Below are positions 5,837-20,374 of a stretch of DNA of 64,000 nucleotides, one piece after another. A model generated the notes under the pieces. The model was not told the DNA's origin. It saw nothing but the letters and a program-made list of their open reading frames with translations, and searched no databases. Location: the IMG/VR virus record IMGVR_UViG_3300042564_004498, positions 64,001-128,000 of that record. One strand, 5' to 3'. The position numbers and the translations under genes are program-made. The stretch comes from a virus. Every line of letters begins with the position of its first letter. The first letter of the stretch is position 1.

Positions 5837-6115
5837 ATGAATAAGTACATTATAACTGAACAGCAGAATGACAAATTGATGGAATTGATGAAAAAATTTG
5901 CCAATCAATATATTGAAGAACGAGTAATTCAAACTGATGTTGAAATTGAATATTCAAATGAAAAAGGTGCTTATATTCTATATCCTGTTTTTTATGTTAA
6001 AAATAAAGAAAATTTCCCACATCATATTTATAAACATATTTTAGCACAACGAGTTGAAGATATGTTTGGTGTTCCTGTTCATTCCTCATCCGCACGAGTT
6101 AAAGTAATTGATTAA
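5837..6115 (+). CDS. MKYIITE-family protein
   Basis: MNKYIITEQQ; C-terminal EDMFGVPV. Confidence 0.8.
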   Translation: MNKYIITEQQNDKLMELMKKFANQYIEERVIQTDVEIEYSNEKGAYILYPVFYVKNKENFPHHIYKHILAQRVEDMFGVPVHSSSARVKVID

Positions 6116-6120
6116 AACAT

Positions 6121-6999
6121 ATGAGATATATTATAACTGAATCACAATATCAAAAATTACAAGAACAACGAGTTAAAGGTGAAGAAATTACACCAGGAAA
6201 ATATGTTGTTCATACTTCTAACCCTTTAAATAGAGATAACATTTCTACCACAGGTCTTCAAGTATCTTTGGGTGAATGTTATTTAATTTATGCCGATAGT
6301 AATTACGGTGAAGATGAAGAATGTGTTCCCGCAGTATTTGCCACAAATAGTATAAAGAAAAAAGATATGTTTGATTCAACATATGATGATGACATATGGA
6401 TTATTGATACAGAAATCGCGGGAGTCCAATGGTATAAAGACGCTCATTTTGAGGGTGGTGATACTAAACATATTGTTACCTTTGAAGATATCCCTGTCGA
6501 AGCAATTAAATTAGTTCAGGAAGGAACAGGTGGAGACACTTGGAATCACCATAATGATGAAACTGAGTTAACATTAACAGAAATGATTAAGTTAGATATC
6601 AAAGTTGGTGACACTCTAATGGGCGGAAAATTTAAGAATAAAAAAATTGTTGTTAAGACAATAGATAAGAATGATAAAGGTGATATAACAATCAATGGTA
6701 AACCTCTTTTAAGATTTAGGATATTAAAAGAAGATAAGTATCGATTACTTAGAAGAGAAGGTGATATGAAACATAGAATTGATAATCAACTTATGATGTC
6801 TAAACTTCAAAATGATTTATATTTTGTACCGTTAGAACATTTAATTTTACACATTGCAGATAATGTAGCAATTGAGATGTCTAACGAATCTAACTTAGGT
6901 GATGATGAGTATATCACATTCAGGAATCAAATAAAACAATATATTCGTAATAACTTTTATGAACATATTAAAAAGTTTTGGGAATCAAATCAATTATGA
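6121..6999 (+). CDS. MKYIITE-family multidomain protein with ART/Tpt1-like domain
   Basis: MRYIITESQY; VHTS..I..TGL..AVFAT..IPVEAIKLV pattern. Confidence 0.7.
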   Translation: MRYIITESQYQKLQEQRVKGEEITPGKYVVHTSNPLNRDNISTTGLQVSLGECYLIYADSNYGEDEECVPAVFATNSIKKKDMFDSTYDDDIWIIDTEIAGVQWYKDAHFEGGDTKHIVTFEDIPVEAIKLVQEGTGGDTWNHHNDETELTLTEMIKLDIKVGDTLMGGKFKNKKIVVKTIDKNDKGDITINGKPLLRFRILKEDKYRLLRREGDMKHRIDNQLMMSKLQNDLYFVPLEHLILHIADNVAIEMSNESNLGDDEYITFRNQIKQYIRNNFYEHIKKFWESNQL

Positions 7000-18264: not shown

Positions 18265-18298
18265 AAAAAAAGGTGTTACATCACTGTAACACCTTCTT
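18265..18298 (-). terminator. intrinsic terminator ending the large ncRNA
   Basis: AAGGTGTTACA-gtga-TGTAACACCTT followed by a T run. Confidence 0.85.
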
Positions 18299-18299
18299 G

Positions 18300-19165
18300 G
18301 CTAATACGATGAGAATACTCGTCTTATTGAGAATCTTTAGAAGGATTATTGTTTCCCTTCGTTTCCACTATCTTTTGGATAGTAATCCTCATTGCCGATT
18401 AGTTAGACTAATCACTCCTTAAGGTAATAACCACTCTCTTACTACTCTACTCTCTTCAACCTTGCGAGCTAACTCAGGATTCGACTCCTTAGAGGTTTTT
18501 GGTAAAAATACGATTGAACTTGGGATTCTTTCGTGCCACGGACCGCCCGTGACTGTGTAGGCAACTTTCGTTATCACCTGACGAACACTTTTCCGTTTTT
18601 CTGTTAGTTTTTCACCTATTGAAAAGTTTGGTTTGTGTTGTGGATGAGTCCAAGTAGAGGTCCGTCTTAGGCTTCGTTATCTTTTGAACAACAAAATACC
18701 TGTCTACTCGGTGAGATATCCCTATCTCCATATTTTAAGATTACTTCAAACGAACACCTTGGTAGATGTTTTGTAAGGTTAGTAGCGACACCACTCGTTC
18801 TCTAACTTACCTTTCGGTTTTAAGTCCCCTCTCATATTGGAGTCCGCAATAATATTGTTGGAACAATATTTTTTGCTTGACCCCTGTGACTTATTCTTAT
18901 TGTTTTTCCAAACTCAGTTCAGGAACCCACATTCCCAAACCATCCAACCACTTTCCCTAAAGCGTCGCCCTCAATACTCAAGGTCGGATGATATGTCACT
19001 TGTATACTCGAGTTCCATTTCTGAAACCGCAATCCTGTTAACACAACAGGTTCACTTTATCCCCCTTTCGAGGTTTATTTGACGACCATATACAGCCGAT
19101 TATCGTTTATTAAATTAGTCTCAATGTCAACCCGAAGGTCTTGATATCAACATCTAAATGGATAA
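18300..19165 (-). ncRNA. GOLLD-like large structured RNA (~870 nt)
   Basis: GC-elevated, no credible ORF, GNRA/UUCG hairpins (CCUC-GAAA-GGGG, ACC-GAAA-GGU, GACC-UUCG-GGUU, CUC-GCAA-GG). The 3' part GAGUAG..AGAGUGGUU..GUGGAAACGAAGGGAAACAAUAAUCCUUC..GUAUUCUCA resembles the GOLLD 3' domain as I recall it; next to tRNAs; ends approximate. Confidence 0.8.
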
Positions 19166-19170
19166 TAATA

Positions 19171-19183
19171 TTTTCAAAGAACG
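19171..19183 (-). promoter_or_regulatory. boxA-like antitermination motif
   Basis: CGTTCTTTGAAAA just before the large RNA; second copy AGTTCTTTAAAA at 19762-19773 before the tRNAs. Confidence 0.6.
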
Positions 19184-19590
19184 TAATTCATATTAATGAA
19201 GGAAAGGTCAACCTTACCGAAGTGGGATTTTAACCCTTCCTTCATTTCAATTGTTTTACAAAGGTAGATGAAAGTTTTGACACTGTCAAATTTTTATAAA
19301 ACTTTTTTCTAACAATCTTACTCTGTTACTACCGATAGTGAGATTTGATTTCGGTGATTGTTAAAGACCAAATAGTGTTACCCGTTTGGTTTACAAAGAT
19401 AAGAAAGTTTTTTTGAACTGTCAAATCTTTTTTTAGAAATTTTGTGTTTATTTTTTTAATGACCAAAGTCAAAAACCATATTTTATAACACACCCTCTTT
19501 CATGGTCTTGGGGTTATCTCCAATTGTTTTACAAAGATATGAATAACTTTTCAATTAATCAAACACTTTTTAAAACTTTTTTTTAATTAG

Positions 19591-19663
19591 TAGCGGGAGA
19601 AGGACTCGAACCTCCGACCTTATGGTTATGAGCCACACGAGCTGCCAACTGCTCTATCCCACG
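19591..19663 (-). tRNA. tRNA-Met(CAU), initiator-like; CCA not encoded
   Basis: Full cloverleaf CGTGGGATAGAGCAGTTGGCAGCTCGTGTGGCTCATAACCATAAGGTCGGAGGTTCGAGTCCTTCTCCCGCTA; C1:U72 mismatch. Confidence 0.9.
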
Positions 19664-19677
19664 ATGTTTGTTGTTAG

Positions 19678-19750
19678 TTGCGTAGGGCCGGAAACGAACC
19701 GACTTGGACTGGCTTATGAGACCAGTGAGATACCTTACCTCCCCCTCGCG
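19678..19750 (-). tRNA. atypical tRNA(CAU) or tRNA-like RNA
   Basis: Anticodon arm CTGGT-CTCATAA-GCCAG; T arm GTCGG-TTCGTTT-CCGGC; C1:A72 mismatch; bulged acceptor stem. Confidence 0.7.
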
Positions 19751-20020
19751 ATATATCATTATTTTAAAGAACTTCAGATAAAAAATCCCACAAGCTACAA
19801 GGGTTTTCTCAAACTCACACTTGCGGGATTTGTTTCACAAAGATAGGAAAGTTTTTTTGAACTGTCAAATCTTTTTTTAACCGCGAAACATTTTCTGGGG
19901 TGTTTGTCCTTTCGGACATGAACATATAAATATGTCCTTTTTTTTAAAAATACAATAATATTATTGAAATGTCAAATAAAAATTCAAATACTATTATGTT
20001 TTCTAAAGTATTTATTTGAT

Positions 20021-20374
20021 ATGAAGGTAAGAATTAACGATAACAGTTTTAATGTAAAAACATTAATTGATAGAGAATCCCAATCAATTGGGATGATGGG
20101 TAAAGCATTTGATGGAACTTTTAATGGATTGTTATTCTTAATGGATGGTAAGAAACAATGTTTTTGGATGAAGGGTTGTGTAATTCCATTAGACATAATC
20201 ATTATAAAGAACAATGTGATTGTAAATATACATCACGATTGTCCTCCATGTAATAATGAATTTGATTGTCCTTCCTATTGTGGAAACGGTAATATTGTAT
20301 TAGAACTTGAGGGTGGTTCTTGTGAAATCCTCAACATTCAACCGGGTGATAGTATCACTTACGACTTATCTTAA
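20021..20374 (+). CDS. DUF192 family protein
   Basis: GMMG..GLLF..FWMK..IPLDII..VLELEGG..IQPGD; start reassigned to 20021. Confidence 0.85.
   Translation: MKVRINDNSFNVKTLIDRESQSIGMMGKAFDGTFNGLLFLMDGKKQCFWMKGCVIPLDIIIIKNNVIVNIHHDCPPCNNEFDCPSYCGNGNIVLELEGGSCEILNIQPGDSITYDLS

Follow-up and report, generated by a model that had tools for sequence, protein, structure and literature searches.

A large lake phage of Bacteroidota carries, on one strand, a cassette in which a pair of tRNA-Met genes and the RNA known as GOLLD stand behind several tandem promoters and two boxA words. These elements, in this order, are identical with signals of the ribosomal RNA (rrn) leaders of the host phylum and are conserved across related phages. 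Judging from these signals, it is likely that the cassette is a unit for stable RNAs that is transcribed by host RNA polymerase, is built like a host rrn operon and is subject to rrn-type antitermination. The tRNA pair and GOLLD would then probably be made by the termination-resistant machinery with which the host transcribes its rRNA.

The phage is represented by an IMG/VR virus record of 145.5 kb with ~31% G+C, which is estimated to be ~48% complete, and the window analysed here is a stretch of 64,000 nt of that record. The cassette lies on the minus strand throughout, and its four main promoters span 19868-19259 (Table 1). Read along that strand, it begins with P0, a small GNRA hairpin, P1, a 13-bp hairpin with U6, GTTCTTTAAAA and the two tRNA-Met genes. 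Past the tRNAs follow P2, a stretch of weak fold, P3, a hairpin, P4, a 17-bp hairpin, GTTCTTTGAAA and GOLLD.

Table 1. Elements of the RNA cassette, in window coordinates
Feature	Position	Strand	Description
P0, fifth promoter-like site	19945..19975	-	TTGACA-17-TATTTTTA; degenerate -7 box; outside the span flagged by the sequence-only reading
U0 leader	19890..19937	-	Small hairpins including GUCC-GAAA-GGAC (19918-19905), then ACACCCC; z = -2.9
P1	19838..19868	-	Host-type, TTGACA-N19-TATCTTTG
U1 leader hairpin	19783..19831	-	13-bp stem, loop UUGAGAAAA, then U6 (terminator-like); z = -3.1
boxA-1	19762..19772	-	GTTCTTTAAAA; ends 12 nt ahead of the tRNA pair; unpaired in fold
tRNA-Met (CAT), first	19679..19749	-	Low-scoring; ARAGORN; Rfam tRNA 30.3 bits
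tRNA-Met (CAT), second	19590..19663	-	ARAGORN; Rfam tRNA 55.6 bits
P2	19532..19562	-	Host-type, TTGATT-N19-TATCTTTG
U2	19436..19531	-	Sequence past P2; weak fold, z = -0.26; no boxA or terminator
P3	19394..19424	-	Host-type, near-copy of P1
U3 hairpin	19308..19365	-	Stems of 7 and 5 bp, conserved loop; z = -2.4
P4	19259..19289	-	Host-type, TTGACA-N19-TACCTTTG
U4 leader hairpin	19195..19246	-	17-bp stem, between P4 and boxA-2; z = -2.7
boxA-2	19172..19182	-	GTTCTTTGAAA; ends 6 nt ahead of the UUAUCC block; unpaired in fold
UUAUCC block	19160..19165	-	From alignments; first stretch past boxA to be conserved among GOLLD relatives
GOLLD RNA	18306..19165	-	3' domain (18711-18306) is RF02032; alignment of the 5' domain with relatives begins at about 19165
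Intrinsic terminator	18267..18298	-	Strong; end of the RNA cassette, directly past GOLLD; fold z = -5.3

The large RNA matches Rfam RF02032 over the full model (1-416) with 323.2 bits (E = 9e-92; gathering cut-off 150), and its 5' domain was placed by BLAST against >100 GOLLD loci. The UUAUCC block, 6 nt past boxA-2, is almost invariant among GOLLD relatives and, as the alignments suggest, is probably the start of the 5' domain. A pairing of this block with 18951-18940 that would close the 5' domain was dropped because 18951-18940 pairs locally with 18986-18978, with covariation. No pairing partner of UUAUCC was found, and RNAalifold on 32 leaders left the block unpaired. Nor was a leader-trailer helix or pairing, or a boxC, found at the phage cassette. 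The first tRNA-Met scores just over the Rfam tRNA cut-off. Upstream, the cassette is bounded by a divergent DUF192 (COG1430) gene, 20021-20374 on the plus strand, which sits between the cassette and a minus-strand gene for a 470-aa protein with a weak, sub-threshold match to the DHH domain.

The four promoters P1-P4 share the pattern TTGAyA, 19 nt, TAyCTTTG, with an A-rich stretch upstream of each. This is the -33/-7 type of Bacteroidota, and all four have what is expected of a sigma-A promoter in that phylum, namely a -33 TTTG and a -7 TAnnTTTG at the right spacing. A reading made from the sequence alone, without database searches (the sequence-only reading), had described four host-type promoters within 620 nt directed toward the tRNAs and GOLLD, two of them near-identical. 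The pattern scan bore this out, the near-identical pair being P1 and P3 with 94% identity over 51 nt. In the entire record, both strands counted, a loose form of the pattern has 56 matches, where ~38 are expected, so that four matches on one strand within 620 nt constitute a real cluster. In three relatives (L004, L011 and L044) the position homologous to P0 is occupied by a promoter with the canonical TATCTTTG.

In related loci the density of promoter matches is 3.04/kb on the sense strand upstream of GOLLD, as against 0.09 on the antisense strand and 0.147 in the rest of the loci. At least two promoters lie upstream in 78 of the 90 distinct GOLLD loci, and most loci have two to four in tandem. 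Host rrn leaders are arranged in the same manner: 44 of 88 have at least two promoters, mostly 105-130 nt apart. Phage and host rrn promoters have in common the upstream A-tract, the TTTG, the A-tract in the spacer and the TAyCTTTG, whereas the bases past the -7 box are unlike, GCAnCCCC in the host and GTAAAACAA in the phage. Five relatives (L027, L036, L046, L051 and L069; e.g. L027:7929-8038) carry a complete host-type promoter inside the loop of the tRNA-leader hairpin, and transcripts from such an inner promoter would therefore begin in the 3' arm of the hairpin.

The word GTTCTTT(G/A)AAA, which the sequence-only reading had placed shortly before both the tRNA pair and the large RNA, is indeed found there, 12 and 6 nt ahead, respectively. 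boxA-1 begins 65 nt past the -7 box of P1, and boxA-2 begins 76 nt past that of P4. By the predicted folds and starts, both words would be single-stranded in a transcribed leader, on the sense strand and soon after a promoter. The exact 11-mer of boxA-2 occurs once in the record, where 0.2 occurrences are expected. The variant at boxA-1, GTTCTTTAAAA, has 7 one-mismatch matches in the genome against 7 expected, which is no excess over chance, and the case for boxA-1 therefore rests on its recurrence in relatives. No clear boxA belongs to P2 or to P3. A third candidate, GGTCTTTAACA at 19369-19359 on the minus strand, was not counted, because it is paired, as part of the 5' arm of U3, and is not conserved in two relatives (L018 and L077). 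It is one base off variants that precede tRNAs elsewhere.

The word was next compared with host leaders. The sample comprised 120 stretches with the Bacteroidota-specific 16S 5' signature, taken from one-genome-per-species contigs, with 121 16S starts. In these, GTTCTTTGA is the most enriched leader 9-mer outside 16S (45 of 103 Bacteroidota leaders), and GTTCTTTGAAA with at most one mismatch occurs in 62 of the 103, the leader consensus being aaa(a/c)GTTCTTTGAAA(a/g)tATTGaaa. The motif of the phage and the rrn boxA of Bacteroidota, a comparison which the sequence-only reading had proposed as a check, are thus the same word. Between -600 and 0 of 16S there are 79 sense and 2 antisense matches, with a sharp peak at -200 to -100, and a second peak falls in the 16S-23S spacer (14 matches at +1700 to +2300). 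This distribution, biased to the sense strand with peaks in leader and spacer, is the textbook distribution of boxA. The likeness extends beyond the word itself: several hosts have ACGTTCTTTGAAAATATTG, which equals 19184-19167 of the window over 18 nt, and boxA-2 with its flanks, ACGTTCTTTGAAAATATT, accordingly shows an 18-nt identity to some host rrn leaders.

GTTCTTTGAAA, the top word in leaders of the host lineage, is one base off the NusB-binding consensus of Bacillus subtilis (PMC13753749). The rrn boxA consensus of that organism, AUGAUCUUUGAAA, is a direct binding site of NusB and immediately follows a 5'-terminal hairpin (PMC13753749). In Escherichia coli, boxA is found after P2 and again before 23S, and it is both required and enough for formation of the rrn antitermination complex (PMC10250234). 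Hairpins precede boxA in the host leaders as well, the preceding 63 nt folding with z < -2 in 48% of them. NusB, NusG and Rho are all present in a Bacteroidota control genome, that of Bacteroides thetaiotaomicron, and no gene for NusB, NusG, Rho or an N-like protein was found in the 145-kb phage record (~48% of the genome). To our knowledge, boxA function has not been demonstrated experimentally in any Bacteroidota.

Relatives of the cassette were drawn via the neighbouring DHH gene and a conserved GOLLD pattern. GOLLD aligned in full at 115 of the loci obtained, 90 of them distinct. A boxA word with at most one mismatch lies 40-160 nt ahead of the conserved core in 84 of the 90, these loci sharing descent and not being independent events. 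The survey of other GOLLDs for an upstream boxA, also suggested by the sequence-only reading, therefore found the word conserved. It most often reads GTTCTTTGAAA (37 loci) or GTTCTTTGAAT (32 loci), and a host-type promoter is found at most 230 nt upstream of it in 78 of the 84 boxA-bearing loci, with a gap of 18-28 nt between -7 box and boxA in 43 of the 78. The background rate of the word in the same loci is 0.083/kb, from which <1 locus would be expected by chance. Chance as an explanation was rejected on the promoter counts, the boxA-word counts and the promoter density. The flanks differ in sequence and length among relatives and the word is constant. Comparison of the sequences thus indicates that the word is kept by selection while its flanks drift, and points to purifying selection on the elements of the cassette across the relatives.

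The usual upstream neighbour in the relatives is again tRNA-Met(CAT). A strict boxA-like word stands 12-20 nt before tRNA-Met in 16 of 33 distinct pre-tRNA leaders, and near variants occur in most of the others. Seven loci (L006, L008, L021, L030, L038, L141 and L129) have a structured insert of ~80 nt between boxA and tRNA-Met, located in L006 at about 6115-6205; the insert is absent from the window, and an Rfam search with it gave no match.

The motif is co-inherited with GOLLD in 84 of 90 relatives, and a mere 6 nt separate it from the first block that is conserved in GOLLD. This could also mean that the motif is the conserved 5' end of GOLLD itself, either structural or an RNase site, and that it resembles the host rrn leader by coincidence. 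Such a coincidence would have to account for a match of up to 18 nt to the leader and spacer word of the host phylum, when a chance 11-mer match is expected 0.2 times in this record, and a part of GOLLD would not be expected before tRNA-Met genes, where the same word recurs. The GOLLDs of other phages bear on this point. Five Rfam-confirmed GOLLDs in tRNA arrays were inspected, four from higher-GC phages and one from Acinetobacter phage vB_AciJM_313, and no boxA-like word lies within 1.2 kb of any of them, even when two mismatches are allowed to either form of boxA, that of E. coli or that of Bacteroidota. The word is therefore best regarded as an expression signal of the host lineage and not as a structural part of GOLLD, and we hold the coincidental reading to be very unlikely. 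The GOLLD of vB_AciJM_313 (L321; PX050566.1, 81344-81727, minus strand) is unannotated, scores 207 bits with Rfam and lies between tRNA-Pro and tRNA-Gln in a long tRNA array.

Between the promoters and the boxA words lie the leader hairpins. The sequence-only reading had a stem-loop follow each of the four promoters, and this stood for P1, P3 and P4, behind which the sequence folds better than its shuffles, and failed for P2 (z = -0.26). Hairpins in the position of a boxB precede both boxA words; they are conserved in subsets of the relatives, and U1 and U4 are missing in about half. The U1 hairpin, with the same loop word and U-run, is found in about 13 relatives, and the U4 stem in 16, where compensatory changes are seen at 7 of the 11 pairs. 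U3 is 90-97% conserved in L018, L039, L077 and L096, and the U0 hairpin is conserved in relatives with a compensatory change, GACC/GGUC, in L004. U2 has no homolog in 200 loci. Separately, the GOLLD-leader hairpins of five relatives (L021, L044, L065, L093 and L168) contain one or two copies of GGTTGTAAAGATTCC at internal positions, which could be a site for a protein or a tertiary contact.

The hairpins had also been proposed to be separate small RNAs. The cassette would then be an array of small RNA genes, each a promoter plus a hairpin, and GTTCTTTRAAA, instead of being a Nus site, would serve them in common as a signal for processing or for the RNA end. The conservation of the U0, U1, U3 and U4 hairpins in subsets of relatives, some of it with compensatory changes, agrees with this, as do the terminator-like U6 behind U1 and the conservation of loop words such as UUGAGAAAA. 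A small RNA gene should, however, have its own terminator as well as its own promoter, and only U1 has a U-run; U0, U2, U3 and U4 run without a terminator into a boxA or into the next promoter, which begins at once. Three of the four hairpins originally named thus have no terminator behind them, and for U2 the fold is not superior to that of shuffles and no homolog was found. Moreover, the distance from promoter to boxA is 18-28 nt and free of any hairpin in about half of the relatives, and the order of hairpin then boxA also occurs in host rrn leaders and in B. subtilis rrn (PMC13753749). The proposal of separate small RNAs is not supported, and we consider the array improbable. As no terminator other than that of U1 is present, the U1 and U4 hairpins are read here as rrn-like leader hairpins. 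The rrn-type model leaves the terminator-like U1 unexplained: it lies upstream of boxA-1, which could therefore not override it on one and the same transcript.

From the signals described, we infer Nus-factor binding, antitermination, an output that is high or rRNA-like and help with folding, in the following manner. Several tandem Bacteroidota-type sigma-A promoters would fire one way, and on two of the transcripts a leader hairpin and then an rrn boxA would appear soon after the start, one transcript having its boxA before the tRNA-Met pair and the other directly before GOLLD. Host NusB-NusE(S10) would bind the boxA RNA (GUUCUUUGAAAAUAUU) and, with NusG and NusA, would turn RNA polymerase into an rrn-type antitermination complex. 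This complex would resist Rho along the GOLLD transcript, which is untranslated and ~860 nt long, and would elongate fast, and it may aid the folding of the long RNA during its synthesis. The stacked promoters would raise output, and the terminator at 18298-18267 would close the unit.

Two further roles for boxA can be envisaged. The complex assembled on boxA, 6 nt before the 5' domain, might be needed as a co-transcriptional folding helper. If this were so, NusB/NusE would be required for the GOLLD cage to form in the cell, and the words UUGAGAAAA and GGUUGUAAAGAUUCC could bind an unknown phage or host factor, making a nut-like two-part signal. In a bolder version boxA would stay on the mature RNA and the cage would bind S10/NusB. 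That the helper is needed strikes us as unlikely. Alternatively, boxA on very abundant phage RNAs might act as a sponge that draws NusB-S10 off host rrn and shuts down host ribosome synthesis. The evidence for this is circumstantial: the boxA is identical with that of the host, the promoters are several, and the cargo forms 14-mers (bioRxiv 10.1101/2024.12.08.627333). A sponge would require boxA to be retained on the mature RNA and would have no need of a leader boxA right behind a promoter, yet boxA is so placed in 78 of 84 loci. We regard it as extremely improbable.

Antitermination of the rrn type would place the phage cassette in a known class of mechanism, represented by rrn operons, the nut sites of phage lambda and boxA-led CRISPR arrays; what would be new is the cargo and the phylum. 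In the E. coli rrn control region, tandem promoters P1/P2 are followed by a leader with boxB-boxA-boxC and by a spacer boxA, and the complex comprises NusA/B/E/G, SuhB and S4 (PMC10250234). The phage cassette resembles this in its tandem promoters, in having a hairpin and then boxA soon after the start, in the second boxA further down before the large RNA and in the combination of untranslated structured cargo and tRNAs in one unit. It differs in that the cargo is GOLLD and tRNA-Met rather than rRNA, in having up to five promoters, some of them between the tRNAs and the large RNA, and in that its function is a prediction from sequence. The B. subtilis rrn leader (PMC13753749) has nearly the same word, GAUCUUUGAAA as compared with GUUCUUUGAAA in the phage, and the same order of hairpin then boxA, although it belongs to another phylum and the phage hairpin is optional across relatives.

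As at the lambda nut sites, where boxA and boxB serve the phage N protein, the phage would engage the Nus machinery of its host by way of a boxA on the RNA being transcribed. Unlike nut, the order in the phage cassette is hairpin then boxA, as in rrn, and not boxA then boxB, and the cargo is a stable RNA instead of the delayed-early genes. boxA also precedes CRISPR arrays and suhB in gammaproteobacteria, according to work cited in PMC13753749. There, as proposed here, boxA is used outside rrn and carries polymerase through RNA that is not protected by ribosomes, but those are chromosomal genes of Proteobacteria, whereas the present case concerns a Bacteroidota phage and a giant structured RNA.

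We know of no function for GOLLD since its first description. It assembles as a 14-mer cage (bioRxiv 10.1101/2024.12.08.627333), and the window resembles the solved env-38 GOLLD in having a full GOLLD adjoining tRNA-Met. Transcription signals are not discussed in the cryo-EM paper (bioRxiv 10.1101/2024.12.08.627333), and our literature search found no paper linking GOLLD with boxA and none on GOLLD transcription. A search for the motif string gave only unrelated primers, such as those for the Mycoplasma 16S-23S spacer. The presence of a host-identical boxA and stacked rrn-like promoters before GOLLD in most related contigs suggests that this RNA takes the transcription route of rRNA. If it does, GOLLD should be very abundant and its transcription resistant to Rho, and its folding may be assisted. 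Production by that route would also extend boxA-type control to Bacteroidota, in which it has been little studied, and to stable RNAs encoded by phages.

The signature of promoter, optional hairpin and GTTCTTTGAA could be used to find other stable-RNA genes in Bacteroidota phages. In three other phage contigs, GOLLD is preceded on the same strand by a tmRNA gene at a distance of 0.6-1 kb (L114, 12201-12566; L122, 6454-6797; L128, 6248-6649).
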